DNA from: a virus
IMG/VR virus record: IMGVR_UViG_3300037504_000588
Coordinates: 14,997-78,996 of that record
DNA length: 64,000 nt
Strand: one strand, 5' to 3'
The stretch's first letter is position 1; the number at the start of each line of letters is the position of its first letter. The translations under genes and the position numbers were made by a program. Of this stretch, positions 34,486 through 59,677 are shown one piece after another. The notes beneath the pieces were generated by a model. It saw only the letters and a program-made list of their open reading frames with translations. It was not told the DNA's origin and did not search any database.

Positions 34486-35112
34486 ATGAGATATATATTA
34501 TATGCTATATTGTTTATTTTCTTAACTTCTTGTTTAACAAAGAAGAACTTGCCTAAACATATGTATAAATTTAGAGGAGATGCTGCTAAAATTAGCAATC
34601 AAATGTTTCCGGCAAATGATAGTATTGTTACCAAAATTATAAAAGAAAAAGAGTGGATAGACACAACATCTAAATTTAAGTTACCTTTTAACGTGGACTT
34701 TAAAGAAAAAGAGGTAATTTTTGACACAATTAATTTGTATGAAAATTTTGGAGTTGATCCTTGTGATTATTGTAATTCCGATACTGTATACACACAAACT
34801 TCTACTTCATTCAATAAATGCTGGACGGAAAAAGGAATGATCAGATCAATTTCACAAAGTAAAGATTCACTTGAATTGAAGTACAAGTATCTTGTAGTAA
34901 GACATGATTCTATTGTTAAATCATATAAAGAGTACGAAAGGGAGTGTATTTTTAAAGATTTAGAAATAGATAGACTTGAAAGAAATATTGATAAAATTGA
35001 ATCTAAATTAGAGAGAAACAGAAAATGGAAGTTTAGATTTATGTCGGGATTTTTAGTTTTATTGTTAATAATAGGAGTGAGGGTTTGGATATGGGTGAAA
35101 ACGAAAAGATAG
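34486..35112 (+). CDS. Lipoprotein with C-terminal TM helix (unimolecular-spanin-like)
   Basis: Lipobox FLTSC and a C-terminal hydrophobic helix followed by basic residues. Confidence 0.55.
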   Translation: MRYILYAILFIFLTSCLTKKNLPKHMYKFRGDAAKISNQMFPANDSIVTKIIKEKEWIDTTSKFKLPFNVDFKEKEVIFDTINLYENFGVDPCDYCNSDTVYTQTSTSFNKCWTEKGMIRSISQSKDSLELKYKYLVVRHDSIVKSYKEYERECIFKDLEIDRLERNIDKIESKLERNRKWKFRFMSGFLVLLLIIGVRVWIWVKTKR

Positions 35113-35312: not shown

Positions 35313-35326
35313 TATATTAATAAAGA

Positions 35327-39573: not shown

Positions 39574-42500
39574 ATGAAAGATATATTTAAAAAAATATTA
39601 GGTATTCCAACTTTAGAAGAAAAAGCAGAAGAATATATACAACTTGAAAATGAAAAGGAGCTGTTAAAAGGTGATATAGACAATGCGGCAGAAGAGTTTC
39701 AATATATGTCATATGTAAGAAAGTCAGGAATTGAAAAATGCAACAACGAAGAGATAAAAGAACGTATTGAAGACAAATACAATGATTTTATCGCCGAGCA
39801 CCTCTCTAATGTTAAGAAATTAAGAGAAAGAAAGAAGGAGATTGACTTACGTTTACAAAAATTAAACAAGGACGAAAGGATAAAAAAGGGAATAGGGGAA
39901 TTAAAAAAGATTAATGCATATAATACTTTAAAAAAAGCGTACAAATTAGGAAGATTATCACACAGTGCATTTGATAAGATTTGTAAAGCCAAGCAAGGTA
40001 AAGTTAAATTTGCAGATGTGTTGGTTTATGATAAAGATTTAAATCAGTTATATTTAAAGCGTAAATCTGATAGTACATTTGAACCCGAAAAGTGGGGTCT
40101 TCCTGGAGGACATGTTGATTTGCATGAAGATTGCAAAGAGGCTGCAATACGTGAATTGCAAGAAGAAACAGGAATAGATGTAAAATCTAAAGATTTAGAG
40201 TTAATTGGTAAATATGATAAAGGTGGTGTATATATTGAATATTATAAAGTTTATCTAAAAGAAGAAAAGCCTCAAATAACACTTGAATCAAGCGAACATC
40301 AAGATTATAAATGGGGAAGATTTGATGATTTTACAAAAGAGGAGATGTTGTTAAATCTACACTCTAATTTAGAGGATATTTTAAATCCTTTAAAAAGAAA
40401 TATAAGTATTATAAAAAAAGCAATAGATCAAGGGTTAATAAGTAAAGATCAATTGATTGATATTGTAAAAGCTAAAAAAGACCCCTGTTGGGAAGGATAT
40501 GAACAATACGGAACAAAAAAGAAAGACGGGAAGGAAGTTCCAAATTGTGTAAAAAAAGCAGACGAAGATTGGGACAGTTGGGAAGAAATGGAAAAAAGTG
40601 AAGACGAAGAAACCCCTTCCAATGGAACAATAAAACCTTCAACCAGAGATGGTAAAAAGGCAATGGTATGGATGGATGGTAAATGGCATCACTTTGGACA
40701 GAAAGGAGCAAAGCATAATTACTCTAAAGAAGCAAGGGAAGCTGCAAAAGCAAGACATAAAAAGAACCTTGAAGGAAGCGATCCTCGATCTAAAGCATTC
40801 AGGGTATATTGGAAGAAGTATTGGGAGAAAGGTGGTAAGGTCAAAGAAACTGACACAACAAAGGCAGAAGCTGATTATTTTAATATTATTGATGAAGATG
40901 ATGATATTTTTAAATCTTGGTCTTCTGATCTTAAAAATAGGTTCCCTAATGGTGATTGGAGAACAATAAATGGAGCTAAGGTTTTTATCAATAATGGTAG
41001 GGTTATAGCTGGGTTAGATGGTTTTAATGGAATGATAGATAATTACTTTAAAGAAAATAAGGAAAGTAAAATTAAAATATCTAAAGAAACAGATAAAGCT
41101 TATTTACTGAATAAAGATGGAGTTGAGTTTTGGGTGCAAAAAAGATGGTACAATAAAGACAAAGAGAAGTTAACTCCAAGAGGGGAGAAGGCATTAAATG
41201 AGGTTTTAGAAAAACAATCTAAAGTTGAAGGTGGGAATAAGGATTTTGATATAAAAAAAGAAACACAGAAAGCTTTTCTTTTAGAAAAAAATGGCGTTGA
41301 GTTTTGGGTTCCAAAGTCTTGGTATAAAGATGGAAGTTTAAACAGTAAGGGTTTAGATAATTATTTAGATGCAAAAGAGAAACAAAGACCATATAAAATA
41401 TGGGAAGCACCAGGAGGAGATATGTTTAGAGCTTATGATAAAGATGGGTCTGGTAACTATATTCAAATATCAGTAAAAGAAAGAAACCCACAGGGGTATT
41501 ATGAGAGGCATAGATATTCAAAAGGAGAGAGCGGATTTTATACTTTTTTCATAAAAGAAAATGGTGATTTTAGTCAAGCAGATAAAAAACAGTTTATAGA
41601 AGATATAGAAGATAAATTTGGAGCATATCATGTTAATTATGTTGAAAAATCTTCTATTGATACCCTAATCAAAGCCCTTGAATCAAATAAATTAGATTGG
41701 AATAGCTTTGAAAAAGCTGGAGGACACAAGTATATCCGTAGAGAAGGTACTCCGGGTAATTATAAGTATATATATAAAGAGAGTAAAACAAAAGGTAAAA
41801 AGGATGATATAATTACTCCAGAGGAACGTGCTAAAAATTTCAAAGAATGGTTTGGGGATTCTAAGGTTGTTGATGAAAACGGAAAGCCTTTGGTTGTTTA
41901 TCATGGAACAGCTTCCGATAAAAAATTTACAGAATTTAAACCTATGTCAAGCAGTGAAGCAAGGCATATACATTTTAATGATAATTTTACATTTTTTACG
42001 TCTAAAAAAGATATAGCAGAAGATTATTCTAACTCTTCTGAATTAATAATGTTTATGCAAGAATATGGGCTTGAAGAAGACGATTATGATCTGTTTTTTG
42101 TTCCACAAAGTGTACGTGAAGAAAATAAAGATAAATTTGAAAATTATTTAAAAAACAGTCATGGGTTAAGCGAAAGTGAAATAGATGAACTTGATGATTT
42201 AGATTTAAATAATTATTGGCAGGATTATTTTACAGATTTATTGGCATATTATGACAAAAAACATATATACAGTACATATTTGAAGATAGAAAAACCTAAA
42301 ATAGTAAATGCTGAAAAATTATTAAACTCTTTAAGTGAAGAAGAAAAAGATACAATAAGGAACGAACATGAAACCCTTAGAGAGTATATTATAAGTTCTT
42401 TTGAAAGAGAGTATAAAGATAAGGGGTATGATGGGCTCATAATTAAAAACATATTTGATTCTCCTAAATATGGTGAAGTTATAGATGATGAAGGGAAAGA

Positions 42501-46137: not shown

Positions 46138-46596
46138 ATGAAAAAAATTAAGTTTTTGGCAATAGGTTTATCATTATTGTCGGCTATTGTATTTATTAAT
46201 GCAACAAAAACTCCGATTAAAAAGTTAGGGGAGGTTTACACACACACAGCTACGTTAGATTCTAACAGTGCAGATACTGTTACATTTACAATTAATTCAA
46301 GTGTTTTTGGTGGAGCAGAAAAGGCACTATTACTTCAAACTATAATTAGCGGAAGCCCTGACTCTTCTTCTATTATTACTGATTTTTATAGGAGTGAAGA
46401 GTCTTCGATAGCTAAAGCTGAAAGTTATTTTAGTGATACATTAAAGGCTGAATCTGATAAGGTTACTATTAATACTAAATCAGATTATGCAAGTTCTGTA
46501 TTGTTTGCTATTATTAGAAATACAAAGAGTGAAGTAAATGACACTGCTGTTTCACAGTCTTATTCTTTGAAGGTAAAAGTATTAGACGAGCAATAA
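46138..46596 (+). CDS. Signal-peptide protein
   Basis: MKKIKFLAIGLSLLSAIVFINA. Confidence 0.65.
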   Translation: MKKIKFLAIGLSLLSAIVFINATKTPIKKLGEVYTHTATLDSNSADTVTFTINSSVFGGAEKALLLQTIISGSPDSSSIITDFYRSEESSIAKAESYFSDTLKAESDKVTINTKSDYASSVLFAIIRNTKSEVNDTAVSQSYSLKVKVLDEQ

Positions 46597-46641
46597 GATA
46601 TATTATAAAAAAATTCGATATTTTTAATTAAGAAAATTATT

Positions 46642-47418
46642 ATGTCAACTGAAAAAGATAAAAAAGAGTTAACACAAGAAGAATTATCTAAGGCATTGCT
46701 TGACATCTTTCAGGATGAAGAATCGGTTAAAGACCTCTTAGAGAAAGGTAAAAAGGGGCAAGATTATGACGATGAGCAAGGTGATGTTCCTGGTGAACAA
46801 GACACCGGACAGGATGAGTACGATGAAGATGAAGACATGAAAAAAGCCAAAGATGAGTATGATAAGGCTGAAAAGGCAATGAAAGCAGCTAAAGATAAGT
46901 TAGAAAAAATGAAAAAAGCTGGAACTTCATGTAAAAAAGGAGAAGAAGACGATCTTAACAAAGATGAAAATAAAGAACAAAATGTTGAAAAAGCTGAATC
47001 TTTAAATATCCTTAAAGGTTTTATTGATAACCTCACCTCTAATGATAAAGAGTTTAAGGAAGAAATTAGAAAATCAATTAATGATTTAAGTGAAAAACAT
47101 GATTCTTTATGTAAAGAATGGGAAAAATTTGCTTCACAGCCAAAAGGGTTGAAGAGTTATAAGGGATTAAATTTTATAGAAAAGGGTGAAGGTTTTGAAA
47201 ATAATGAAGAAGACAATGACCAACTTTCTATTTCAAAAGATAAAGCAAAAATAGAAAAGGCTATAGAATCAATGATAGAGTTAACTGACAATAATAACAA
47301 GAAACAGTCTTACGAAAATCAGTTAATGAATTATAATTCTTCTGGTGATCCACGTTCTTTAAGTAAAGCATTGGTTCAAGATTTACAAAAAAGTCAGGAT
47401 ATAACACTTATTAAGTAA
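46642..47418 (+). CDS. Putative capsid scaffolding protein
   Basis: Acidic coiled-coil between protease and capsid genes, many xKA/KS/KG sites. Confidence 0.65.
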   Translation: MSTEKDKKELTQEELSKALLDIFQDEESVKDLLEKGKKGQDYDDEQGDVPGEQDTGQDEYDEDEDMKKAKDEYDKAEKAMKAAKDKLEKMKKAGTSCKKGEEDDLNKDENKEQNVEKAESLNILKGFIDNLTSNDKEFKEEIRKSINDLSEKHDSLCKEWEKFASQPKGLKSYKGLNFIEKGEGFENNEEDNDQLSISKDKAKIEKAIESMIELTDNNNKKQSYENQLMNYNSSGDPRSLSKALVQDLQKSQDITLIK

Positions 47419-47456
47419 TAAAAAATATTTGGTTAGAGAATAAATTTATATAAAAA

Positions 47457-48944
47457 ATGAACAATAATTTAGATTTTTATCAATATTCAAATCTGGAAAC
47501 AGGACATAAGACAGAATCAGAAGTTTATGATCTTATGAAAGCAATGTCTGCTGGTTCGCAGACTGGTAGAGATTTGGACGGAACAACAACTTCTGGTAGT
47601 GCGTTGAAAGTAGAATCTCTTGATCCTACATTGCGTGTATTGACCAATAGAGACAAACACATTGTTTTTTGGAAAATGCTTCCAAAAGAAAAAGCATACA
47701 ATACAGTAGAAGAATACAATGTATTGGAGGATTATGGAGGAGATATTGGCATATTTAACACCGAAGGTGAAACTCCAAGTTTTACTGACTCACAATACAA
47801 ACGTGAAAGTGTGTTAATTAAATATATGGGTGTTTCTGGTGAAGTAACACACCCCTTTACTCTTGTTAATCTTGGTTCAGGTGTTGGAAATGCACTTGGA
47901 AAAGAAGTTCAAAATAAGACGCAATACCTTGTAAGGACTATTAATAAGAGTTTAGCAACAGCTAACAGTGATCATGTTGGTGAAGAGTTTGATGGAGTAT
48001 TTAAACAACATTATGATGGCATTGTAGGAAGTGGTGACCTTGATACTTATTTTAGTAACTCAACTGTGATTGATGCGAGAGGAAAGGCTCTTTCAGATGC
48101 AAATGTAGAAGATGCTGCACAAGCTGTTGTGAACGATAATTTTGGTGAAATTAGTACAATATTGGGTTCACCTTCTGTGTTCAATAGTTATGTTAAAAGA
48201 TTCCACGAATCTAAACGTATTAATGTTAACAACCCAGTTACTGCAACTACTGGAGCAACCATGGGTCAAAAGGTAAATAATATCCAGACTCAATTCGGAG
48301 ATGTTAATGTTGTTAATGATATTTATTTTGATAAAGATAGGCTTACTGGTGTTGATTACAATAAATCAGCTACATCAAGCAAGTCTCCCGATGCCCCAAC
48401 GGCGTTAAGTTATGCAACTGCTGTAGATACAAAAACCAATTTTGCTGATAGTACAGGGGATTACTTTTATGCTATTGCTGCTAAGAATCGTTATGGACAA
48501 AGTGCTGTCACTATAGTTGACACTACTGCCGTAACGGTTAGTGCAAATGAAAGTGTAGATATTTCTTTTACTTACACTGATGGTTCATATGCAGCTGAAT
48601 CTTTTGTTGTATATAGAACTAAAGCAGATGTAACAGATTATACAACTGCTAAATTTTATCCTATATTTACAGTAAGCGCAAGTGAGCGTACAAGCGGTTA
48701 TGACGGTGCTGCTGCATCAAAAATTAGAGATAGGAATAGATTCCTTCCAGGCACATCAAGTGCTATTGTTTTAGATTTTAATAGTGAAATTATTACATTT
48801 AAACAATTAGCTCCTATGATGAGGATGGATTTAGCAAGAACTTCACCTTCTTATAGGTTTATGGTTCTTTGTTATGGAACTCCGCTCTGTGGTATACCAA
48901 AGAGGATTGCACGTATAGTTAATCTGGGTACAGATATTTCTTAA
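47457..48944 (+). CDS. Major capsid protein (SPO1/Twort-like)
   Basis: GSALKVESLD, AYNTVEEY, EFDG, QLAPMMRMDLA; followed by a strong terminator. Confidence 0.9.
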   Translation: MNNNLDFYQYSNLETGHKTESEVYDLMKAMSAGSQTGRDLDGTTTSGSALKVESLDPTLRVLTNRDKHIVFWKMLPKEKAYNTVEEYNVLEDYGGDIGIFNTEGETPSFTDSQYKRESVLIKYMGVSGEVTHPFTLVNLGSGVGNALGKEVQNKTQYLVRTINKSLATANSDHVGEEFDGVFKQHYDGIVGSGDLDTYFSNSTVIDARGKALSDANVEDAAQAVVNDNFGEISTILGSPSVFNSYVKRFHESKRINVNNPVTATTGATMGQKVNNIQTQFGDVNVVNDIYFDKDRLTGVDYNKSATSSKSPDAPTALSYATAVDTKTNFADSTGDYFYAIAAKNRYGQSAVTIVDTTAVTVSANESVDISFTYTDGSYAAESFVVYRTKADVTDYTTAKFYPIFTVSASERTSGYDGAAASKIRDRNRFLPGTSSAIVLDFNSEIITFKQLAPMMRMDLARTSPSYRFMVLCYGTPLCGIPKRIARIVNLGTDIS

Positions 48945-48950
48945 ATAAAG

Positions 48951-48977
48951 ATAAGGGGGCATTTGCCCCTTTATTTT
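48951..48977 (+). terminator. Intrinsic terminator after the capsid gene
   Basis: ATAAGGGGGCA TT TGCCCCTTTAT followed by T tract. Confidence 0.8.
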
Positions 48978-49002
48978 GTTTTATTAATTAAAAAATATTG
49001 AA

Positions 49003-49476
49003 ATGAAAATACAAGCTAAAGGTAGTAACTATTTAGGTAAAAAAGTAATAGTTTGTAATGAGGTTGTTGAATTTGACAATAATGCTATTGCCGAAGTGAA
49101 AGAGGATAAGGCTAAAGAGATTCTTGAAGCGCACCCAGATAAATTTTATGAAGAGGGTAAAGTCCCTGTGGAAGAAGTTAAGTCGGATGAGGTTAAACCT
49201 GAAATAGACAAAGAAGAGTTAAACAGATTAAAGGATAAACTTACAGAGGTTGAAAAAGAAAACACTAATCTTAAAAAGGAATTAAAAGCAGCTAAAGAGA
49301 GCTCTTTACAAGAGGGTTTTTCAATGCAAGACATTGAACTTGTTTACGATTTAACAAGAAAGAAAAAATCTGAAATAGAGGAACAAATAGAATCACTTGA
49401 ACTACCAAGAGAAGAATGGGAAGGAAAAAGCGCAAAAGAATTAGTTCTTTATTTGTTTCAGCAAATGTCAGAATAA
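49003..49476 (+). CDS. Hypothetical head-associated protein
   Basis: Position directly after the capsid gene. Confidence 0.55.
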   Translation: MKIQAKGSNYLGKKVIVCNEVVEFDNNAIAEVKEDKAKEILEAHPDKFYEEGKVPVEEVKSDEVKPEIDKEELNRLKDKLTEVEKENTNLKKELKAAKESSLQEGFSMQDIELVYDLTRKKKSEIEEQIESLELPREEWEGKSAKELVLYLFQQMSE

Positions 49477-49514
49477 TTTATTATAATATTAGTCAACTTT
49501 ATTTTTTTGCTTAG

Positions 49515-50309
49515 ATGGCAAGTCTTACATTAACAACATCATATAGGAAAAATAATAATCTACTGTTTTCAGCAGACGAATTATTGTCTGTATATTTTTA
49601 TGGAACAGATATAGAAAGTCAGGACGGAACAGACTTAGCCAATTCTACTATTGAATTTTATTTAAAGGCAGCTCAAGAAGAAGTTGAAAGATATTTCGGA
49701 GTTAAATTGTTCCCCGAATTGTTGGTTGAAAATGTTGATTATAATAGAGATGATTATGAATACAATTTTCCATTTGTAAAAGTTAGCGCACCAGTTAGAA
49801 AAGCACGAACACTGATAGGTCGAATTAATAGTTTTGATCAAATAGTTTATCCAGAGGAATGGTTGGTAGAAAAAGCAAGTTCAGAAAAGAAGTATCATCG
49901 TCAATTTTCTATTATTCCAAATGGAAGCGTTGTAAATGCAAATGCTGATGTTGTTTTTACCGGAGTGACCTCTTATTATGGACTCAGGAGCTACCCAAAC
50001 ATCCCTAATTACTGGTATGTTCAATATGAGACGGGATATAAATACGGAGAGGTTCCGAGAGATATAATGCATTTAATAGGAATGTTAGCCTCTATCCCAT
50101 TACTTGCTATTGCGGGAGATTTAATATTAGGGGCAGGGATAGCAAGTCAATCGTTAGGTATTGACGGGTTAAGTCAATCTATTAGCTCTACAAGTTCAGC
50201 AACTAATGCGGGGTATGGAGCAAGAATTGTGGAGTATAGAAAAACAATAGATTCAGTAAAGAAAGAGATGAGGAAAGCATACAAAGGGGTTAATTTTACA
50301 GTTTGTTAA
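49515..50309 (+). CDS. Putative head-tail adaptor/neck protein
   Basis: YETGY, GIASQSLGIDGLSQSIS, YGARI; position. Confidence 0.65.
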   Translation: MASLTLTTSYRKNNNLLFSADELLSVYFYGTDIESQDGTDLANSTIEFYLKAAQEEVERYFGVKLFPELLVENVDYNRDDYEYNFPFVKVSAPVRKARTLIGRINSFDQIVYPEEWLVEKASSEKKYHRQFSIIPNGSVVNANADVVFTGVTSYYGLRSYPNIPNYWYVQYETGYKYGEVPRDIMHLIGMLASIPLLAIAGDLILGAGIASQSLGIDGLSQSISSTSSATNAGYGARIVEYRKTIDSVKKEMRKAYKGVNFTVC

Positions 50310-50319
50310 ATTTAAAGAA

Positions 50320-50721
50320 ATGAAAAAAATATTTATATTATTTATATCTTTTTTAATTGGTTTGGTCTCTTATACACAAGAAGCACAGACTTTTGTCATG
50401 AATATTCATGACAATGATACAGTTAAAACATGGGAGTTTGATTATGATATACCGTTTACTTTGCAGATTAAAGAGAATATACTTTCCGACACTACAAAAA
50501 ATGGAGAATTGAATATTCAAGTAACAACTAAACAAAGTAATGAATATCTTGATTTGATTAATGATTCAATACCCTATACTGTTAACAAAAGTAAAGGGTT
50601 TTTATTTTATCATTCTATTCCGAGAAAATGGAAAGCTGTTTATACAAAGAATTTAGCAGATAGCGGGTATGTTATACTAACAATAGAACCATTAACGCCA
50701 AAATTTTTAAATAAACCATAA
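50320..50721 (+). CDS. Signal-peptide protein
   Basis: MKKIFILFISFLIGLVSYTQ. Confidence 0.65.
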   Translation: MKKIFILFISFLIGLVSYTQEAQTFVMNIHDNDTVKTWEFDYDIPFTLQIKENILSDTTKNGELNIQVTTKQSNEYLDLINDSIPYTVNKSKGFLFYHSIPRKWKAVYTKNLADSGYVILTIEPLTPKFLNKP

Positions 50722-50722
50722 T

Positions 50723-51964
50723 ATGAAAAATTTTTTAACAATTTTATTGTTTTTGTTTTCGGTTTCGTTATTTTCTCAAAATATGCAAGTTGTTGAAAAT
50801 CCTTTAACAAAATCAACAATAGGGTCTGCATCAAGTGCAGATACAGCAAACTATTCCTTAAATTCAGACAAAATAGACAACATAGGTGAAGGTAAGAGAA
50901 TAAATGAAATATATTGGAAGGGAACATCAGGGATGGATTCAGCTATCGCTAACAGAGGTATTATGACAGTTACGGAGATAGATACCTTTTATATAGGCAA
51001 TAAAGAATATTCAATATATACAGATGCAAGTGACAATATTGATATATTTAGCATCATTTATGGCGGTCAAATATGGTCAATGAATAATTCTGGTGAATAT
51101 TTAAGGGATATTGTTATAAATAATGATGATGCCAATATTCAGTTAGATGCATCAACAGGGTCACCTTCTTTGTACTTTGAAGAGTCAAGTGCAAGTAGAG
51201 CAAGAATAACTTACTCTGAATCAGCGAACCAATTATATCTTAAAAATGAAACAGCTGACACGAGGTTTAGAATGTATGATGATACTATAACTGCATTTGA
51301 ATTTTATCAATCAGGCAATGAAGATATTCAGATTAGATTTGACGGTACTTCTAATGATGGATATTTAAGATACAGAGAAGATGAAGATGAATTGGAGACA
51401 ACTTCTTCTTTTAAAGCAGACAGCACTTTTTATTTTAATAGGAATAGTTCAAACATTATAGATATAGGATTTAATGTTTTTAATAATTCAGGATGGAAGT
51501 ATTTTGATGATGGCTATGGTCATCAAATAAGATTAGATGGCAATGGATTGTCTTATAATGTTGCAGGACAAAATTCAAGTGGTTATGGAGCTTCTTCTTC
51601 ACTATCAAATGTGTTTAATGTAAGTAGGGGAGGGGATATTGAAACAGATGGGCAAATAGGGCATTCATCTGCTCAGACTATAACATTGGGAACGGGAGTT
51701 ACTACATTTGCTGTTACAAGTAATGTGGTTATAGTTACAGGAGATGGCGGAGGTAATACTATTGCAACTATAACAGGAGCAAGTGTTGGAACATATACGT
51801 TTATTTTTACAGATTCAAATGTAACAATTAGTAATGATGATACACACGGATCAAACAGTGTTGATCTGGATGTTTCTAATGATTTTAGCAGTGCTGATGA
51901 TAAGGTGCTGCAACTTGTATATGACGGTACAAGTTGGTATTCGGTAAGTATTACAATTAATTAA
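50723..51964 (+). CDS. Signal-peptide, fibre-like beta-rich protein
   Basis: MKNFLTILLFLFSVSLFSQ; C-terminal LVYDGTSWY typical of fibre domains. Confidence 0.6.
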   Translation: MKNFLTILLFLFSVSLFSQNMQVVENPLTKSTIGSASSADTANYSLNSDKIDNIGEGKRINEIYWKGTSGMDSAIANRGIMTVTEIDTFYIGNKEYSIYTDASDNIDIFSIIYGGQIWSMNNSGEYLRDIVINNDDANIQLDASTGSPSLYFEESSASRARITYSESANQLYLKNETADTRFRMYDDTITAFEFYQSGNEDIQIRFDGTSNDGYLRYREDEDELETTSSFKADSTFYFNRNSSNIIDIGFNVFNNSGWKYFDDGYGHQIRLDGNGLSYNVAGQNSSGYGASSSLSNVFNVSRGGDIETDGQIGHSSAQTITLGTGVTTFAVTSNVVIVTGDGGGNTIATITGASVGTYTFIFTDSNVTISNDDTHGSNSVDLDVSNDFSSADDKVLQLVYDGTSWYSVSITIN

Positions 51965-51976
51965 AAATATAAAACA

Positions 51977-52495
51977 ATGAAAAAAATATTAATTATTTTA
52001 GGATTTTTAGTTTGCCTTACAATAACTAAAGCAGAGAATTTATTAATTTATAAAGGAGATACGGTTGATATAGAACAACTTGTATCTGAATTAGATAGTG
52101 TTGATAAAATTGTGACTACTATAAAACTAAATGATGGTGTTGTAGGAGGCAAGATGAACCTTATTAATGCCCTGAACGAGACTAATGATAATCTTGTAAT
52201 TAATTTAAGTCAACAAAACGATAATATTAAAAAAGCAATAAAATTAATTTATGTTGATAACCCTATTCTCGAAAAAGAGTATATACATAGATTAATACAA
52301 GAGTATTACAGGCAGATTGAAATGTGGGATGTTAGTTCTTTTGTGGGGCAAAAAGTTGGAGTTTTGGTTGTTATAAATAACAAGAAAAAGTGGATGACTG
52401 GAACTTATATAGGTCAATTACAAGGATTTGCTATAATTGAACAATACTCTGGAGTTTTAAGAAAGGGAATACTAAAAACAATATTACCTAAATAA
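51977..52495 (+). CDS. Signal-peptide protein
   Basis: MKKILIILGFLVCLTITKA. Confidence 0.6.
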   Translation: MKKILIILGFLVCLTITKAENLLIYKGDTVDIEQLVSELDSVDKIVTTIKLNDGVVGGKMNLINALNETNDNLVINLSQQNDNIKKAIKLIYVDNPILEKEYIHRLIQEYYRQIEMWDVSSFVGQKVGVLVVINNKKKWMTGTYIGQLQGFAIIEQYSGVLRKGILKTILPK

Positions 52496-52497
52496 AA

Positions 52498-54090
52498 ATG
52501 AAATATCTTTTAAATATACTATTATTATTAATAATACCTCTATTGTTGCAAGGACAGAAGTATTATGTAACCGATTCATCAAGAACTTATTATATAACCG
52601 ATTCATCAGTTACATATTATATATATTATGATTTACCTGGAGCTGCTTTAATGCATTTAAACGGAAATGTTTCTACGATTAACAATAAAATTGACACCGT
52701 CTTCGATGAAAACAATCACTATAACGCTATTCAAACTGACACCTCAAAGTCTCCTTCTTTAGTAGATGGAAGCTGGCAATTTGATGGTATTGATGATTAT
52801 GTTGAAGTGGCTGATAACAATAATTTAGATTTACAAAATAATTTTACTGTCAGTGCATGGGTCAACGCTAACGGTATATCAGGAGCGCCTCAAGGCATTT
52901 TGTCTAAAGGTAATTACTCATTAAAAGAGTATGATGATGATTATATTTTTGAAGTTTTAGGAGACGGGACTACATGGAGTAAGTCAGGTGACGTAGGTAA
53001 TACCCCTTTTGGTTTGGCTGCATACGATGGTAAATTATATATAGCATGTCGATATAGTGACGATGTTTACGTATTCGACGGTACTTCCTGGAGCAAATCA
53101 GGTAATGTAGGTGATGAACCTTTTGGTTTAGCCGTCTACGACAGTAAATTATATACAGTATGTCAATATAGTGACGATGTCTACGTATTTGACGGAACCT
53201 CCTGGAGTAAATCAGGCGACGTAGGTAATGACCCTCGTGGTTTAGCTGTATATGATGGTAATTTATATGTAGCATGTTTTGGTAGTGATGACATTTACGT
53301 ATTTGACGGTACTTCATGGAGTAAATCAGGTAACGTAGGTACTTCCCCTCGTGGTTTGGCTGCATATGGTGGTAAATTATATACAGCATGTGCAGGTAGT
53401 AATGATGTCTACGTATTTGATGGAACTACATGGACTAAATCAGGTGACGTAGGTGATACCCCTCTTGGATTAGCCGTCTACAATGGCAAATTATACGTAA
53501 CCAATGCAGGCAGCAATGACATTTATGTATTTGATGGTACTTCCTGGACAAAATCAGGTGACGTAGGTAATGCCCCTTTTGGATTAGCCGTCTACAATGG
53601 CAAATTATACGTAACATGTGTAATCAGCAATGACATTTATGTATTCGACGGAACCTCCTGGACAAAATCAGGTAATGTAGGTGATTTTCCTCGTGGTTCG
53701 ACTACATATGATGGTAAATTATATGTAACATGTTCAGGTAGTGACGATGTCTCCGTATTTAGTACAGGAGAGAGTTTATGGGCAAGTAAAGGTACTGGAT
53801 ACGAACAATTAATAGGAGTTGTGACAGGCGATGAAATTAAATTATATGTCAATGGAGAGGAAAAAGCATCAACTGCACACTCTTTAACATTTGATAATAA
53901 TGATAACTCGTTGTTGATAGGTAAAAGTTATGGTTCTTCACAGTCAGGGCTAACTGGAGGTAATAGTGAAGTATTCAACGGCTCAATAGACGAAGTAATA
54001 ATTTTTGATCGTGCTTTAATTAAGAATGAGGTTCAAGAATTATATAACTCTTGCGATACAACAGGAGGAGTATTAAATTGTAATTATTAA
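52498..54090 (+). CDS. Signal-peptide LamG-domain protein with an inserted 7-blade beta-propeller
   Basis: FDGIDDYV, FTVSAWV, LYVNG, FNGSIDEV; seven 38-aa repeats. Confidence 0.8.
   Translation: MKYLLNILLLLIIPLLLQGQKYYVTDSSRTYYITDSSVTYYIYYDLPGAALMHLNGNVSTINNKIDTVFDENNHYNAIQTDTSKSPSLVDGSWQFDGIDDYVEVADNNNLDLQNNFTVSAWVNANGISGAPQGILSKGNYSLKEYDDDYIFEVLGDGTTWSKSGDVGNTPFGLAAYDGKLYIACRYSDDVYVFDGTSWSKSGNVGDEPFGLAVYDSKLYTVCQYSDDVYVFDGTSWSKSGDVGNDPRGLAVYDGNLYVACFGSDDIYVFDGTSWSKSGNVGTSPRGLAAYGGKLYTACAGSNDVYVFDGTTWTKSGDVGDTPLGLAVYNGKLYVTNAGSNDIYVFDGTSWTKSGDVGNAPFGLAVYNGKLYVTCVISNDIYVFDGTSWTKSGNVGDFPRGSTTYDGKLYVTCSGSDDVSVFSTGESLWASKGTGYEQLIGVVTGDEIKLYVNGEEKASTAHSLTFDNNDNSLLIGKSYGSSQSGLTGGNSEVFNGSIDEVIIFDRALIKNEVQELYNSCDTTGGVLNCNY
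52963..53760 (+). repeat. 7 x 114-bp coding tandem repeat
   Basis: DGTxWxKSGxVGxxPxGLAxYxGKLY...DVYVF unit. Confidence 0.95.
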
Positions 54091-54093
54091 TAT

Positions 54094-54429
54094 ATGAAAA
54101 AACTTTTTTATATACCAATTGTCATATTACTACTTTCTTGTAATAATTCTATATTGAGAATAGAATGCGATTATCGGTATGGTAGTGATTACAGATATGT
54201 ACAGATGCCTGTAAATACTGCAAAACGAATATCCTATAATTACACAGAAAAAAATATTAATACATTTGTTGTAGTGGATACAGCAGAACTGTCGTATTTA
54301 ATGATAGATTGCAACAATATAGATGTAGAAAAGATGAAATTTTTGATCTGGAAGGATGAGATATTGCCAAACAGATTTTGGAATGATCTTTATAAAAACA
54401 TAAAAATAGATTATTATATTGAAAAATAG
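54094..54429 (+). CDS. Putative lipoprotein
   Basis: LLLSC lipobox. Confidence 0.6.
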   Translation: MKKLFYIPIVILLLSCNNSILRIECDYRYGSDYRYVQMPVNTAKRISYNYTEKNINTFVVVDTAELSYLMIDCNNIDVEKMKFLIWKDEILPNRFWNDLYKNIKIDYYIEK

Positions 54430-54462
54430 AATAAAATGTAATATAATTAGATTAATAATAAA

Positions 54463-54864
54463 ATGACAAAAAAAGAAGCTAAGACATATGGTAATTATGC
54501 TTTGATGGTGGTTATATCTGTTTTAGTAACTGCTTTTGTAACTTCAGGACTTAAAAATACAGATAAGGTAATCCCTATATCTCGATACAGACATGAAAAG
54601 TTTAAAGAAAAATATGAACAAAGAGATAGTATTATAGTGTGCAGAATCAAAAAACAACAAAAGATTGTTGAAGATTTGAAAATCACTGTTAATTCTACAC
54701 ATGGAATTGTAGAACAAAACAAATCTGATTTAGATATATTAAAAAAGGGTATGTTCTCTTCTCGTTTGAAGACAAGAGAAATAAAAAATATGTTCAGGGA
54801 GGTTATGAAGGAAGAGATAATGCAGGAATTAGAAAAAGATACATCGTGTGTGATAATTAAATAA
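54463..54864 (+). CDS. Single-TM coiled-coil protein (holin/spanin-like)
   Basis: N-terminal TM helix directly upstream of the endolysin. Confidence 0.4.
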   Translation: MTKKEAKTYGNYALMVVISVLVTAFVTSGLKNTDKVIPISRYRHEKFKEKYEQRDSIIVCRIKKQQKIVEDLKITVNSTHGIVEQNKSDLDILKKGMFSSRLKTREIKNMFREVMKEEIMQELEKDTSCVIIK

Positions 54865-54870
54865 TGATAA

Positions 54871-55416
54871 ATGATAATGACTGAAAGATTTAATAAATGT
54901 ATTCCTATAATATTAGAGCATGAAGGAGGGTATGTTAATCATAAACATGATCCAGGAGGGGCTACGAATTATGGTATATCTTTAAGATTTTTAAAGAAAT
55001 TGGGGTATAATACAAGTGGAGAGTTAATTGGAGATGTGGACAAAGATGGGGATGTAGATGCAGATGATATAAGGATAATGACAATTAACGAAGCCAAAAA
55101 TTTTTATTTTCATTATTTTTGGAAAAAAGAATTTGAGTTAATAGGGTTAGATGAGGTTTCATTGCATCTATTTGATATGTCTGTTAATGTAGGTGTTTAC
55201 AGAGCAGTAAGATTAGCACAGAGAATAACTCACGCTACGGTTGATGGAATAATTGGTAAAGAAACAATAAAAGCAATTAATCAAGAAGGAGAAGCTTACA
55301 TTTATAAATACAAACAAGAAAGAAAGAGGTATTATCATAGATTAGTAGATAATAACCCCAAATTAAAAATATTTCTTAACGGATGGAGAAATAGAGTTGA
55401 AAGCACCGAATTTTAA
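54871..55416 (+). CDS. Endolysin, glycoside hydrolase family 108
   Basis: HEGGYVNH..DPGGATNYGI, FDMSVN.G, VDGIIG, FLNGWRNR. Confidence 0.9.
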   Translation: MIMTERFNKCIPIILEHEGGYVNHKHDPGGATNYGISLRFLKKLGYNTSGELIGDVDKDGDVDADDIRIMTINEAKNFYFHYFWKKEFELIGLDEVSLHLFDMSVNVGVYRAVRLAQRITHATVDGIIGKETIKAINQEGEAYIYKYKQERKRYYHRLVDNNPKLKIFLNGWRNRVESTEF

Positions 55417-55452
55417 GAATTTTTTTTATTATATTTATAAAAATTATTTAAT

Positions 55453-55725
55453 ATGAAAATAGGATTTTTTGAGACTTGGAACCAAGAGGCAAATATGGTT
55501 GAAAGGTCGTTTACAAGGCTGGGTCAATTTATAGTTTTAGCTGTATTTTGTTTTATAAACATAAAAGTGTTTTTTGGAGGATTGCCAGGCAAAGATTTAA
55601 TGAACTGGATGGGGTTTATATCTTTTGATTTATTGCTGTTGACGGCTATTTTTATCCCCTCTAAAATTAAAGATTGGTTCAGTTTAATTAAAAATAAAAT
55701 CTTAAATAATAACATTAAGGGGTGA
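55453..55725 (+). CDS. Putative holin (2 TM)
   Basis: Small, two TM helices, adjacent to the endolysin. Confidence 0.5.
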   Translation: MKIGFFETWNQEANMVERSFTRLGQFIVLAVFCFINIKVFFGGLPGKDLMNWMGFISFDLLLLTAIFIPSKIKDWFSLIKNKILNNNIKG

Positions 55726-55729
55726 TTAA

Positions 55730-56515
55730 ATGACAAAGGTGATTACACAAGCAACTCCGCCAAATCTTACAGGTCAACCTTCTGTAGAGTTCAGAAAAAA
55801 TGATTTTGATGCAACTATATGGAATAAAGGCTATGATGTGTTGATAGAAAAAGCTGTTAAATGTCCTTGTTCTACAAAAGACAATGAAGCATGGAGTAGT
55901 TGTAATAATTGTTTAGGAATGGGGTGGGTATTTATAGACCCAGTTCAGACTAAAGCACTGATGTTTAATATCAATAAAGATACAAAATATAAAAACTGGT
56001 CTTTAGAATTATTAGGAACAATAGGGTTAACTGTAAGAAGTGCAGAAAAACCTTCTTATATGGACAGGATAACTGTTATAGATAGTGGGTCTATATCAAA
56101 TTATAGTTATTTTAGCGAAATATTAAAAATAAGAGATTTAGAAGGAGACCCTTATGTTTTTTGTTCCTATGAACCTTCTTCTATTGAGTATTTATATGCT
56201 TTTGAAGATTATAACAAGGTTCTTGTTAAATTAACTTCTGATGATTATAGCATATCAACAGATAATTCTTATGTTATTAATTTAAGTTATGATTTTAGTT
56301 CTATATCAAATTTTAATGGAGTTGTTTCTGTAAGATATAAACATAAATTACAATATCATGTTTTAGATATTCCTCATGATATAAGAGCAAGCTATAAAAC
56401 AAACAGTGATGGAAAAGAAGAGCAAGTCCAGTTACCTTTGAATGCAATAGCAAGAAAAGCACATAATGTGTTTGAAATGAAAGAAAAAGATGGAAGTGGG
56501 TTTTTAACAAATTAG
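55730..56515 (+). CDS. Putative head-closure/neck protein
   Basis: CPC...C..C.G.GW motif; position. Confidence 0.55.
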   Translation: MTKVITQATPPNLTGQPSVEFRKNDFDATIWNKGYDVLIEKAVKCPCSTKDNEAWSSCNNCLGMGWVFIDPVQTKALMFNINKDTKYKNWSLELLGTIGLTVRSAEKPSYMDRITVIDSGSISNYSYFSEILKIRDLEGDPYVFCSYEPSSIEYLYAFEDYNKVLVKLTSDDYSISTDNSYVINLSYDFSSISNFNGVVSVRYKHKLQYHVLDIPHDIRASYKTNSDGKEEQVQLPLNAIARKAHNVFEMKEKDGSGFLTN

Positions 56516-56518
56516 TTA

Positions 56519-57592
56519 ATGATGAAAAAATATTTGATCATATTATTGTTAATTGTTGGGTATGTAAGTATTAATGCACAAGATCAGGGCGTATTGTCGT
56601 TAAGTCAACTGTCAAGTGCAAATGCAACAGATGCTTATTATGTCTCAACTACTGATAGTGGAGATTTTCACGTTCGTTGGTCAACTTTATACAATGATGT
56701 ATATAATTATTACCCTGATAGATTGACTGGATTAGATACTGTAGACAATAATTATTATCTTATAGTTAATAAAGACAGTGTTGCATATAAAATAAAATGG
56801 AGTGTTTTCTTAGATTCACTTAATGTAGATGTTTATGATAGCGTGAGAGGTATAGTGAATGATACTGCGAATGTATTAAGAATAGAATGGAGAGTTGATA
56901 TAAATGACAGTTTAGGCAGATTTTGGGATTCAGTAGTGGTGGAAGGTTATGTCAACGATACTCTTAATTATTACATTGATTCAGTATCCATTATTGACAC
57001 TATTAATTCAATAATTAATGATAGTTTGGACAGATTTTGGGATTCGGTAGAAGTTAAAAATTACGTAAACGATACTATTAATTATTACATTGATTCAACC
57101 GCAACAATCGACACAATTAATTCCTTGATAAATGACAGCCTATCTACCTATTATGATTCAACAGAGGTAAGAAATCACGTAAACGATACTCTTAATTATT
57201 ACATTGATTCAGCTTCTATAATTGATACTATTAATTCAATCGTTAACAGCAAAATATATTTAAATAAACCTTTTTCAACATATACGTCTAATTCTGTAAC
57301 AATTAGTTGTGATAGCTCGGGATATAGCGAGATTGATATAAGTGGTGACTTAACGATTAATTTCAACCCTCTACCTTCTGCTGGAGAAATGTCGTCCTGG
57401 ACAATAATGATAAATGGGGATGCGACAGCAAGGGACTTGACGATACAAGAATCAGGAACAGCAATTGATTCATTATATTGGAGCAACGCTAATGAATTAG
57501 ATAGTATTCCTGCGAATGATACAATTGTCGTAGGTGCTAACATTAATAATTCAGGGGTATGGTTTATGAATTATTTAAAAAGAGGAAATTAA
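56519..57592 (+). CDS. Signal-peptide protein with 23 D-S/T-hydrophobic sequons
   Basis: MMKKYLIILLLIVGYVSINAQ; three 38-aa repeats. Confidence 0.7.
   Translation: MMKKYLIILLLIVGYVSINAQDQGVLSLSQLSSANATDAYYVSTTDSGDFHVRWSTLYNDVYNYYPDRLTGLDTVDNNYYLIVNKDSVAYKIKWSVFLDSLNVDVYDSVRGIVNDTANVLRIEWRVDINDSLGRFWDSVVVEGYVNDTLNYYIDSVSIIDTINSIINDSLDRFWDSVEVKNYVNDTINYYIDSTATIDTINSLINDSLSTYYDSTEVRNHVNDTLNYYIDSASIIDTINSIVNSKIYLNKPFSTYTSNSVTISCDSSGYSEIDISGDLTINFNPLPSAGEMSSWTIMINGDATARDLTIQESGTAIDSLYWSNANELDSIPANDTIVVGANINNSGVWFMNYLKRGN
56903..57244 (+). repeat. 3 x 114-bp coding tandem repeat
   Basis: NDSL...DS...VNDT.NYYIDS...IDTINS unit. Confidence 0.9.
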
Positions 57593-59181
57593 TGAAAACT
57601 AAAATATTAGTATTATTAACAATATTAACAATAAAAGTATCTGGACAGGGGCTTGTTAGTCCTGTTTGGATGAATGCAACAGAGGAAGATATAGTAAGTT
57701 ATTGTACTGAGGTGGGTTTAATATCTTGCTATACATTTGATGGTTTAACATGGACTAAATCAGGTGACGTAGGTGATGCTCCTTATGATTTAGCTGATTA
57801 CAATAGCAAATTGTATGTATCTTGTTCCAGTCCCGATGGTGTTTATGTATTCGATGGTAGTACTTGGTCTAAATCAGGAGACGTAGGCAGTGGAGCTCGA
57901 GGTTTAGCAGTCTACGATGGTAATTTGTATGTATCTTGTTATGGTTCCGATGATGTGTATGTATTCAACGGTAGTACCTGGACAAAATCAGGAGACGTAG
58001 GCACTTCTCCTCAAGGCTTAGCAGTTTATGATGATAGTTTATATGTTGTTTGTTCTGGTTCTAATGATGTCTACGTTTATGATGGTTCAACCTGGACTAA
58101 ATCAGGTGATGTCGGTAATAGTCCTTATAGTTTAGCAGTTTATAACGATAATTTGTATGTATCTAATGGTGGTTTTAGTGACATCCACGTTTATGATGGT
58201 TCAACCTGGACTAAATCAGGTGATGTCGGTAATAGTCCTCGAGATTTAGCTGTTTATGATGGTAGTTTATATGTTGCTTGTTCTGGTTCTGATAGTGTGT
58301 ACGTATTCAATGGTAGTACTTGGTCTAAATCGGGAAAAGTAGAAGATGCTCCTCATGGTTTAACAACATATAATGGTAAATTGTATGTATCTTGTTCTAG
58401 TTCCGATGATGTCTATGTATTCAATGGTAGTACCTGGTCTAAATCAGGTGACGTAGGTGATTCCCCTTATAGTTTAGCAACATATAACGGTAGTTTGTAT
58501 GTAGCTTGTTATTTAGACAATGATGTCTACGTATTCAATGATTCATTAGATCAATACGGAAGCAATGAACCAATTAAGCCAGTTTACGCTGAATATCTAC
58601 CAGATTCAGGAATATTAGGTGGTACGTATAAATTTGAAAAAGATACAATTAATCTAGATCAAGTTTTCAGTTACAATGATTTTACTTATTCAATGTGGGC
58701 ATACAAAATAGGGGATGCGATTTATGATGTAACAGGAACATTGATTTCAAGATATTCATCAAGTAGTTCTCCTAATGAGAAATCTTTTTATCTTAGGTGG
58801 GAAGATTCTGACTTTGTGGGCAGGAGTGATTCTCTGATGTTTGCTTTGTACGATGGGAGTGTTGCAGGTTTTGGAACTGAATATCTTATACATAGCGATA
58901 CAAGTCTAAATCATCAGCAATGGTATCATATTGTGGCGTCAGTTGGAGATAGTATGAAGTTATATATTGATGGTGAATTGAGTAATACAGGAGCAGCTCC
59001 TGATACTATTAATTATTACAACAATACGTTTAATATAGGAGGTGTTAATAAATCAACAACAAGACCTGATTTACTCTTTAATGGATATATCGATGAATTA
59101 AGAGTGTACAATAGAGAATTAACAGAATCAGAAATACAATGTCTTTATAACGAAGGGTTTGGAATAACTTGCCCTAAATAA
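57592..59181 (+). CDS. Signal-peptide LamG protein with 7-blade beta-propeller (paralog of 52498)
   Basis: ATG 57592 MKTKILVLLTILTIKVSGQ; WYHIV, LYIDG, FNGYIDELRVYNR. Confidence 0.8.
   Translation: MKTKILVLLTILTIKVSGQGLVSPVWMNATEEDIVSYCTEVGLISCYTFDGLTWTKSGDVGDAPYDLADYNSKLYVSCSSPDGVYVFDGSTWSKSGDVGSGARGLAVYDGNLYVSCYGSDDVYVFNGSTWTKSGDVGTSPQGLAVYDDSLYVVCSGSNDVYVYDGSTWTKSGDVGNSPYSLAVYNDNLYVSNGGFSDIHVYDGSTWTKSGDVGNSPRDLAVYDGSLYVACSGSDSVYVFNGSTWSKSGKVEDAPHGLTTYNGKLYVSCSSSDDVYVFNGSTWSKSGDVGDSPYSLATYNGSLYVACYLDNDVYVFNDSLDQYGSNEPIKPVYAEYLPDSGILGGTYKFEKDTINLDQVFSYNDFTYSMWAYKIGDAIYDVTGTLISRYSSSSSPNEKSFYLRWEDSDFVGRSDSLMFALYDGSVAGFGTEYLIHSDTSLNHQQWYHIVASVGDSMKLYIDGELSNTGAAPDTINYYNNTFNIGGVNKSTTRPDLLFNGYIDELRVYNRELTESEIQCLYNEGFGITCPK
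57739..58536 (+). repeat. 7 x 114-bp coding tandem repeat, homologous to 52963-53760
   Basis: xGSTWxKSGDVG unit. Confidence 0.95.
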
Positions 59182-59212
59182 TTTATAACGAAGAACTAAA
59201 ATATAGAAACAT

Positions 59213-59677
59213 ATGAAAAGAATAAAATTAACTAAGAATCTGTATCTTGATGAATATATTCCACGTGAATTATATTTAAGAGAAGGAATATACGGAGATA
59301 TGTATAATAATTTACCTTTAAATACATGGATGGATATATTGCAAAGAAAAATTAACAAACAAATGGTTGCCGCAGATCAAAAATTAAGAGATCAGTTTGG
59401 TGCGGTAATTATTAATAATTGGATATATAATGGCGAAAGAAATTATAGTGGTTATAGGCCAAAAACATGTAGTGTGGGATATTTTTTGAGTGATCACCGA
59501 GAAGGTAATGCATCAGATAAAATTTTTCAAGATGTAAAAACAGAAGAGGTGATAGATTACATTGAAAAAAACTGGGAAGATTTGGGAATTAATATCATAG
59601 AAAAGGGAGTAAGTTGGGTGCATACTTCTGTTGCATGGACAGACATGCCTCTTAAAATTATTTACCCTGTGCGTTAA
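59213..59677 (+). CDS. Peptidase M15-like peptidoglycan hydrolase
   Basis: SGYR...SDH..GNASD...WVH zinc-ligand pattern. Confidence 0.7.
   Translation: MKRIKLTKNLYLDEYIPRELYLREGIYGDMYNNLPLNTWMDILQRKINKQMVAADQKLRDQFGAVIINNWIYNGERNYSGYRPKTCSVGYFLSDHREGNASDKIFQDVKTEEVIDYIEKNWEDLGINIIEKGVSWVHTSVAWTDMPLKIIYPVR

Follow-up and report, generated by a model that had tools for sequence, protein, structure and literature searches.

Fibre-like and lectin-like proteins with predicted Sec leaders and O-glycosylation sequons encoded among the neck genes of a Bacteroidota myovirus

On the prevailing view, every part of a tailed phage is produced in the cytoplasm and assembled there. One region of late genes in an uncultured phage raises the question of what fibre-like and lectin-like proteins bearing leaders for the host Sec pathway do when they are encoded among capsid and neck genes. 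The region belongs to IMG/VR virus record IMGVR_UViG_3300037504_000588, of which a stretch of 64,000 nucleotides (positions 14,997 to 78,996 of the record; hereafter the window) was analysed, with genes named by their first position in that stretch. An earlier note on this DNA had read the proteins as decoration or receptor-binding proteins that are routed through the periplasm for host glycosylation and disulfide formation and added to particles at lysis or, alternatively, as proteins that remodel the surface of the infected cell. The analysis identified seven signal-peptide proteins that are dense in a Bacteroidota O-glycosylation sequon, most of them encoded in two accessory blocks terminated by lysis genes, and the fibre-like members may reach the virion from the periplasm.

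Export signals and sequons

Signal peptides were called by a rule set requiring a positive n-region, a hydrophobic core of at least 8 residues and small residues at positions -1 and -3, or else a lipobox. All seven open reading frames (ORFs) for which classic signal peptides had been claimed were flagged (46138, 50320, 50723, 51977, 52498, 56519 and 57592), as were the two lipoproteins named with them, 34486 with the lipobox L-T-S-C and 54094 with L-L-S-C. Two membrane anchors of the lysis cassette, 54463 and 55453, were additionally flagged. Elsewhere on the + strand of the 64 kb the rule set flagged a single ORF, the extended early frame 7275, as having an N-terminal membrane anchor, and one 61-amino-acid (aa) frame on the minus strand that scored as a signal peptide looks spurious. 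With this rule set no signal peptide or lipobox was found among the approximately 60 early ORFs, these signals being confined to the late region. Glutamine occupies the predicted +1 position in 5 of the 7 signal-peptide proteins (50320, 50723, 52498, 56519 and 57592), the number that had been claimed; cleavage is predicted after I-N-A, exposing T, in 46138 and after T-K-A, exposing E, in 51977. A +1 glutamine after signal-peptidase-I cleavage is the Q-rule of Bacteroidota (PMC5837995, PMC10653852). It is also found in all four of the exported proteins encoded in the second neck-gene slot of the closest uncultured relative, an 80.8-kb IMG/VR contig labelled G001 here, whose capsid protein is 66% identical to that of the window. 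The exported set is high in S, T, D, N and G and low in K and E.

On these features export of the signal-peptide proteins is predicted with high confidence. Were the leaders unused for export, the proteins would stay in the cytoplasm for assembly of the usual kind, with the leader perhaps tethering them transiently to the membrane or being cut off by a phage protease. The topological problem of bringing an exported protein to a particle would then vanish, and some predicted leaders on phage capsid proteins are perhaps cut by prohead proteases (PMC10367356). This explanation appears very improbable in view of the full n/h/c layout with small residues at -1 and -3, of a +1 glutamine that is a host-specific trait of signal-peptidase-I substrates and is kept across unrelated proteins and phages, and of a sequon enrichment, relevant only outside the cytoplasm, that is confined to the exported proteins (see below). 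Internal Met codons just after the leaders were also considered as a source of cytoplasmic isoforms; three were found, no more than expected by chance, and the idea was dropped.

As to where the exported proteins would reside, type IX secretion was rejected as a route because a C-terminal sorting domain is absent, none of the nine exported proteins giving a Pfam or NCBIfam match to Por_Secre_tail or the type B CTD (C-terminal domain). The exported proteins should therefore remain periplasmic until lysis. In surface-exposed lipoproteins of Bacteroidota the lipidated Cys is followed immediately by an acidic export motif. This motif is missing from both lipoproteins, in which the Cys is followed by L-T-K-K-N (34486) and N-N-S-I-L (54094).

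The motif D-(S/T)-(A/I/L/V/M/T) is a documented O-glycosylation site of Bacteroidota (PMC8550257, PMC8729774, PMC12871550). The counts given in the earlier note for 34486 (6), 57592 (7), 46138 (3) and 50320 (3) were reproduced, and 51977 and 56519 hold 2 and 23 sequons, respectively. Pooled, the seven signal-peptide proteins carry 44 sequons in 2286 aa (1.92 per 100 aa), whereas the density in all other window ORFs is approximately ninefold lower (38 in 17,354 aa; 0.22 per 100 aa). Shuffling gave an expectation of 13.8 for the signal-peptide set, so that the observed number is 3.3-fold higher and was reached in 0 of 2000 shuffles; for the other ORFs the 38 sequons observed compare with 40 expected. 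With 56519 left out, 21 sequons remain against 10.9 expected (ratio 1.9; P = 0.002), and when the two lipoproteins are then added the figures are 28 and 11.5; all nine exported proteins hold 51 in total. Five control motifs (reversed; E, N or K in first place; a non-hydrophobic third residue) occurred at 0.4-0.8 of expectation, the reversed motif being depleted at a ratio of 0.5. Further controls gave 0.84 for D-[NQ]-hydrophobic and 1.28 for a motif with G first, and D-[AG]-hydrophobic was mildly raised (ratio 1.65, P = 0.04; range 1.65-1.85). The agreement of flags and counts with those claimed, together with the shuffle and control results, indicates that the observation is real and specific. 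Similarly, the signal-peptide proteins of G001 carry 33 sequons against 9.1 expected and its other proteins 49 against 52.8, with no enrichment in the large tail-module proteins that lack a signal peptide.

The exported proteins would probably be glycosylated, judging from this enrichment. The sequon excess could alternatively be a structural by-product, with Asp-Ser/Thr caps that precede hydrophobic residues in repeats and beta-rich folds generating the motif in proteins that are exported and not glycosylated. Several results favour that explanation and count against glycosylation as part of the periplasmic proposal: 23 of the 44 sequons are in the single stalk of 56519, where they form part of tandemly repeated units and might be structural in nature, some of those in 57592 are at repeated blade positions, D-[AG]-hydrophobic is raised as well, and signal-peptide proteins of other phages are not enriched. 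Among the latter, those of Cellulophaga phages hold 14 sequons against 22 expected, and six other phage loci with Gln +1 signal peptides show no enrichment, indicating that glycosylation is not a general feature. A general enrichment in signal-peptide proteins of Bacteroidota phages was thus rejected, since it holds for the window and G001 only, and a high sequon density characterises this lineage, not the exported-protein phenomenon as a whole. For the window the by-product explanation is nevertheless the less likely one, as the enrichment persists without 56519 and extends to the two lipoproteins, recurs in G001 signal-peptide proteins that are mostly non-homologous, is lacking from the signal-peptide-free tail-module proteins of the same contig and is accompanied by depletion of the reversed motif.

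Insertions in the neck-gene string

The window is the final 64 kb of a single viral contig of 78,996 bp that has no terminal repeat and ends within its last gene. All window genes, including those given with coordinates below, are on the + strand, and the G+C content is approximately 30%. The late region contains a portal gene (32813), a prohead protease gene (45230; PHROG match), a major capsid gene of SPO1/Herelleviridae type (47457; phrog_752, E = 4e-70) and a GH108 endolysin gene. The closest cultured relatives of the capsid protein, at approximately 37% identity, are those of Bacteroides phages DAC19/20/22 and SJC03 and of Chryseobacterium phage MA9V-3; a megablast search of the window at 46-59.2 kb against cultured phages gave no match. 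We assign the window to the late region of an SPO1-like (Herelleviridae-like) myovirus, incomplete in sequence, whose host belongs to the Bacteroidota. A membrane-containing virion was considered and rejected, as the capsid, portal, protease and neck genes are all of the tailed-phage kind.

In the complete genome of MA9V-3 and in relatives (loci L002-L005) the neck genes form one string with at most one gene interposed. The order is capsid, small gene, adaptor (49515-like), 55730-like, 60221-like, 60979-like and sheath, the homologue of 49515 being followed by that of 55730 directly or one gene later. In the window, 49515 (49515..50309; phrog_772, phrog_442) matches the neck adaptor of Staphylococcus phage phi812 (PDB 8q01_b, E = 7e-12) and is the backbone gene at the left edge of a first insertion. 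The product of 55730 (55730..56515; phrog_1004 virion structural, E = 4e-27) matches the phi812 chain PDB 8q01_S, deposited as 'Capsid protein' (E = 1.3e-6), and is taken as a second neck-cluster virion protein because of its place in the conserved cluster, where it separates the first insertion from a second. An invariant Cys cluster, C-P-C ... C-x-N-C-x-G, is present in 6/6 aligned homologues of 55730, which suggests a metal site in this virion protein family.

Insertion 1 (50320-55725) comprises four signal-peptide genes, the lipoprotein gene 54094, 54463, the GH108 endolysin gene and a holin-like gene, and insertion 2 (56519-59677) comprises two signal-peptide genes and a second lysin-like gene, so that lysis genes terminate each insertion. 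The remaining signal-peptide gene, 46138, is a further one-gene insertion between the prohead protease gene and a scaffold-like gene, a position at which G001 has no gene. With the protease, the capsid gene and the two phi812 matches as landmarks, the interleaving with capsid and neck genes described in the earlier note is real. In G001 the first slot holds a holin-like gene, and the second holds four Gln +1 signal-peptide genes, a small lipoprotein-like gene, a transposase gene and, at the end of the slot, an endolysin gene (phrog_435, E = 1e-22). The transposase, of 635 aa (L047:14488-16395, corresponding to G001 34488-36395; phrog_506, E = 9e-123), places a mobile element among exported genes and endolysin, exactly at the variable neck-gene slot of the closest relative.

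Intergenic gaps inside both blocks of the window measure -1 to 36 nt, and a search between block genes revealed nothing resembling a terminator; a promoter scan was unsuited to Bacteroidota. The tight gaps and the lack of an internal terminator indicate that the inserted genes share the transcription of the late structural genes, unlike morons, which are autonomous. The sole strong terminator within 45-62.5 kb, a hairpin of 13 pairs followed by a T run (48948-48977), is directly 3' of the major capsid gene and may be an attenuator that sets the excess of capsid protein. A 1887-aa protein encoded between head genes (39574-45237) has a NUDIX domain at residues 133-287.

Among the lysis genes of insertion 1, 54094 (54094..54429) encodes a 111-aa lipoprotein that is a candidate outer-membrane spanin and is directly upstream of the others. 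The product of 54463 (54463..54864) is a type II membrane protein of 133 aa with a hydrophobic segment at residues 14-36 and a long charged helical periplasmic part, making it a candidate inner-membrane spanin. The endolysin (54871..55416) has no signal peptide and matches Glyco_hydro_108 (E = 1.9e-20), PG_binding_3 (E = 1.4e-11) and phrog_315 (E = 1.4e-39), and the holin-like protein (55453..55725) consists of 90 aa with two hydrophobic segments. From gene order and predicted topology these four genes look like an ordinary lysis cassette with a spanin of the two-component kind. Insertion 2 is closed by a second lysin-like protein of 154 aa (59213..59677; phrog_894 endolysin, E = 4e-11), again without a signal peptide. 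The other lipoprotein, 34486 (34486..35112; 208 aa), combines its lipobox with a coiled coil and a C-terminal transmembrane helix, a unimolecular-spanin-like topology. Its gene directly follows the portal gene, 19 kb from the endolysin gene and thus outside the lysis cassette, and a homologue with 38% identity and the same spanin-like topology is encoded near the portal gene of G001. In MA9V-3 a 209-aa lipoprotein with a C-terminal membrane helix is encoded two genes after the portal gene (L050:2757-3386); it corresponds to 34486 in size, layout and place, with undetectable sequence similarity, and the two may represent a conserved, fast-evolving envelope protein of this phage group. Neither 54094 nor 34486 needs new biology.

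Fibre-like and lectin-like exported proteins

The larger signal-peptide proteins had been described as resembling virion fibres and lectins, and domain matches, a structure model of 50723 and Foldseek comparisons support this. In 50723 (50723..51964; 413 aa, Gln +1) the C-terminus forms a tip domain of approximately 100 aa that was found, likewise at the C-terminus, in 611 cluster representatives of widely differing length. A signal peptide, mostly with Gln +1, is present in 83 of the best 150 of these representatives. The tip domain is rare in bacteria, with 8 loci among 185,579 species, all in metagenome-assembled genomes, and common on viral contigs; on high-GC viral contigs it occurs on proteins of 800-1100 aa without a signal peptide, one of which has tailspike and virion PHROG matches. 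An AlphaFold2 (AF2) model of 50723 has block means of the predicted local distance difference test (pLDDT) of at least 86, and mostly at least 90, over approximately residues 321-410. Its Foldseek matches are mainly fibres and tailspikes, among them the Mu tail fibre 6o38, tailspikes and tail fibres in BFVD, with template modelling (TM) scores that are low because the body is poorly modelled. By sequence, tblastn of 50723 against cultured phages and a tip-domain profile against solved structures gave no match, and PHROGs gave none for most tip-domain proteins or for the signal-peptide proteins of G001.

A second fibre-like protein, 56519 (56519..57592; 357 aa, Gln +1), consists of an N-terminal domain, a repeat stalk and a C-terminus that resembles a fibre tip. 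Over residues 1-105 it shares 36% identity with the N-terminus of a 1264-aa Gln +1 signal-peptide protein encoded at the same position in G001; the shared segment includes the cleavage region A-Q-D-Q, and the remainders of the two proteins are unrelated. The gene always follows a neck gene, with a conserved N-terminal domain and variable distal parts, and such a combination of conserved proximal and exchangeable distal parts is how virion-anchored fibres evolve. The structural neighbours of 56519 in the ESM Atlas are C-terminal domains of phage fibres, which is a lead only. A single homologue was recovered from a set of 5.8 billion proteins, and a profile of the N-terminal domain found no further relatives in the loci retrieved. 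A 502-aa variant (P0002), encoded on a 2.7-kb JGI contig from another sample, keeps the first approximately 200 residues and the C-terminal tip and has a stalk segment of approximately 170 aa in place of one repeat, a module exchange within the stalk that leaves it with 25 sequons. Complex prediction for 55730 with residues 21-110 of 56519 scored 0.00 in a run without controls and counts neither way.

The lectin-like proteins 52498 (52498..54090; 530 aa, Gln +1) and 57592 (57592..59181; 529 aa, Gln +1) are paralogues with 59-65% identity over a beta-propeller. In 52498 a propeller of YVTN type is flanked by two LamG domains (Laminin_G_3 E = 3.5e-20; beta_rpt_yvtn E = 3e-18). In 57592, the start codon of which overlaps the stop codon of 56519, the propeller is combined with LamG (Laminin_G_3 E = 4e-21). 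There is one Cys per blade in 52498 plus a C-terminal pair, C519/C528; pairs are found at 38/46 and 517/527 in 57592, so that the C-terminal pair is conserved in both paralogues. Homologues of these proteins carry signal-peptide or lipoprotein signals in 62/116 cases.

The other three signal-peptide proteins are small. The 133-aa product of 50320 (50320..50721; Gln +1), encoded just before 50723, is 27% identical to a 136-aa Gln +1 signal-peptide protein in the G001 slot. The gene 51977 (51977..52495; 172 aa), which precedes 52498, gave no family match in domain and PHROG library scans. The product of 46138 (46138..46596; 152 aa) is Ser/Thr-rich, and its ESM Atlas model resembles small beta-sandwich domains, which again is a lead only. 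Small signal-peptide genes accompany large ones both here and in unrelated phage loci, a pairing that recalls those of fibres with their chaperones.

Virion or envelope

Whether exported proteins of this kind can be found on virions was addressed in cultured Cellulophaga phages, for which the evidence from tandem mass spectrometry (MS/MS) is taken from notes in GenBank records. In phi18:3 (KC821620) the leaders of gp085, gp086 and gp087 end in S or A followed by Q, the record describes each protein as 'structural protein, annotation based on experimental MS/MS proteomics analysis', and a lysis cassette with a GH108-type enzyme comes next. Siphovirus phi10:1 (KC821618) encodes four consecutive Gln +1 signal-peptide proteins with the same note, gp091-094, at the end of its tail module. 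In myovirus phiSM (KC821616) gp08 has a Gln +1 signal peptide and the MS/MS note, and the interval from the portal gene to the protease gene holds its gene together with those for a lysin and an exported SGNH-esterase/CBM protein. Signal-peptide proteins are thus annotated as structural in three independent virion preparations of three different morphotypes, which makes a virion route plausible. The gp085 family is present in 38 Cellulophaga phage records, with the first 390 residues kept and the C-terminus swapped between phages of different hosts. A domain of this family is shared by phi4:1 gp047 (L101:4206-6527), an MS/MS-detected structural protein without a signal peptide that is encoded beside a tail-fibre gene, so that exported and non-exported forms occur in phages of one host genus. 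The SGNH-esterase/CBM protein is represented by phi3:1 gp9 (L094:7154-10438), the same gene being present in phiSM; it consists of 1094 aa, is annotated 'pectate lyase' and has a Gln +1 signal peptide, an SGNH/GDSL esterase domain and a CBM_4_9 domain. Lysin genes end the window insertions, the G001 slot, the phi18:3 block and the phiSM and phi3:1 blocks. No paper was found in the literature on Sec-exported parts of tailed-phage virions or on the Cellulophaga leaders.

The explanation that we favour begins with two accessory blocks inserted in the neck-gene string, and one extra gene beside the protease gene, from which fibre-like (50723, 56519), lectin-like (52498, 57592) and small partner proteins (50320, 51977; also 46138) would be made with a host Sec/signal-peptidase-I leader as the blocks are transcribed together with the late structural genes. 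The proteins would reach the periplasm, where the leader would be cleaved, in most cases exposing Gln, and would there fold and be O-glycosylated by the host at many D-S/T-hydrophobic sites. The fibre-like members would then most likely, though far from certainly, come into contact with cytoplasmically assembled particles upon opening of the inner membrane by the holin, or at lysis, and become glycosylated accessory fibres of the virion, with the neck as one possible site; 54094 with 54463, and 34486, would be ordinary parts of envelope disruption. By analogy with the Cellulophaga proteins, virion association of the fibre-like members falls a little short of an even chance. For the wider proposal, that in some Bacteroidota tailed phages Sec-exported, pyroglutamate-bearing and O-glycosylated fibres and lectins join particles after holin action, in a last assembly step outside the cytoplasm that is coupled genetically to lysis genes, we estimate a probability of roughly 0.35.

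Several considerations weigh against this proposal. The rule set by which the signal peptides were called is our own and not SignalP. The Cellulophaga proteins have no sequence similarity to those of the window and are analogues, not homologues, and their detection by MS could reflect co-purification. A periplasmic protein can reach particles only after the inner membrane has been breached, and to our knowledge no such assembly step is described. The blocks are accessory, the neck genes of MA9V-3 being contiguous and free of any signal-peptide gene, and this phage builds the same kind of particle without the exported set; block content also differs between the window and G001. Furthermore, the tail module of G001 encodes, after the baseplate genes, fibre candidates of 678 and 730 aa without signal peptides, which argues that the exported set is not basic adsorption gear.

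Much of this would also be expected if the proteins are exported and never on the virion, forming instead an envelope-acting release or exclusion module of the infected cell. Such proteins might bind or mask glycans of the surface or periplasm, block receptors, preventing superinfection or loss of progeny on debris, or aid lysis, and their fibre-like look would stem from borrowed receptor-binding domains. The known exported phage proteins Lom, Bor, Llp and Cor are of such a kind. The blocks always accompany lysis genes, besides being variable and missing from MA9V-3 in a lineage that has ordinary fibre candidates, and the exported esterase of phiSM and phi3:1 is not listed as structural. The Gln +1 genes of Porphyromonas gingivalis prophages have likewise been read as serving outer-membrane modification (PMC10367356). 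Against an envelope module, the lack of a type IX domain or surface-export motif would keep the proteins periplasmic and away from outer receptors, virion-anchored fibres are built in just this way, with a conserved N-terminal domain and an exchangeable distal part, and MS has detected analogous signal-peptide proteins in three preparations of virions. Known exclusion proteins are also small, compared with 350-1260 aa here. The linkage to lysis genes fits both readings, a holin being needed to reach the particles in the one and release functions being directed at the envelope in the other. We regard the envelope module as a serious possibility, the cell-surface remodelling that had been offered as the alternative being nearly as likely as the virion route. 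Of the earlier proposal of periplasmic routing, the part concerning the signal-peptide proteins is supported by the export signals, the sequon enrichment, the fibre and lectin nature and the conserved terminal Cys pairs; the part concerning 54094 and 34486 is weakened by their spanin-like features, and the signal-peptide set is accessory.

If the virion route is correct, a step of tailed-phage assembly would take place outside the cytoplasm, timed by lysis, and phage surfaces could bear host glycans, with consequences for host range, for evasion of defences and grazers and for the engineering of Bacteroidota phages. If the proteins are envelope-bound instead, they would represent a large unstudied class of late phage proteins acting on the periplasm or cell surface. 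Cultured Cellulophaga phages make the question testable, their signal-peptide proteins having already been listed among the components of the virion. The window contributes a myovirus with exported genes as accessory insertions, coupled to lysis genes, in its neck string, and a replicated, motif-specific sequon enrichment, with three cultured phages available for a direct test.

Among known systems, the proteins of Cellulophaga phi18:3, phi10:1 and phiSM differ from those of the window in sequence and in lacking sequon enrichment, and were detected on virions by MS/MS, whereas the window phage is uncultured. They resemble them in having Gln +1 Sec leaders and in being large late proteins encoded beside lysis or tail genes. 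As in the window, exported genes and a lysin gene are inserted in the head-gene region of myoviruses phiSM and phi3:1, and the gp085 family combines a conserved N-terminal part with a swapped C-terminus as 56519 does. In P. gingivalis prophages, genes of unknown function with Q-rule signal peptides have been interpreted as using host secretion to modify the outer membrane (Matrishin et al. 2023; PMC10367356). These genes share with the window signal-peptidase-I leaders exposing Gln in a Bacteroidota phage; unlike those of the window they belong to temperate phages and have not been described as fibre-like, sequon-rich or inserted among neck genes.

A two-component spanin such as lambda Rz/Rz1 consists of a type II inner-membrane protein with a helical periplasmic domain and an outer-membrane lipoprotein, encoded beside endolysin and holin, and a unimolecular spanin such as gp11 of phage T1 has an N-terminal lipoprotein signal and a C-terminal transmembrane helix. 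54094 and 54463 are like Rz/Rz1 in topology and in the adjoining endolysin and holin-like genes, a likeness of layout and not of sequence, and 54094 differs in being long for an outer-membrane spanin and in preceding its partner. 34486 has the layout of T1 gp11 and differs in adjoining the portal gene, outside the lysis cassette. The fibritin (whiskers) of T4 and the neck passage structure of lactococcal phages are comparable to 56519, by gene position and not by homology, in that a fibre-like gene with a potential N-terminal anchor and a variable distal part directly follows a neck gene; in contrast to 56519 these neck fibres have no signal peptide and are assembled in the cytoplasm. Lom and Bor of lambda, Llp of T5 and Cor are also phage proteins exported by Sec, from genes that lie within or next to the late genes; they are small and often have their own promoter. 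The window genes differ from such coliphage morons and exclusion lipoproteins in being fibre-like and in being so tightly spaced within the late transcript that separate signals would not fit.

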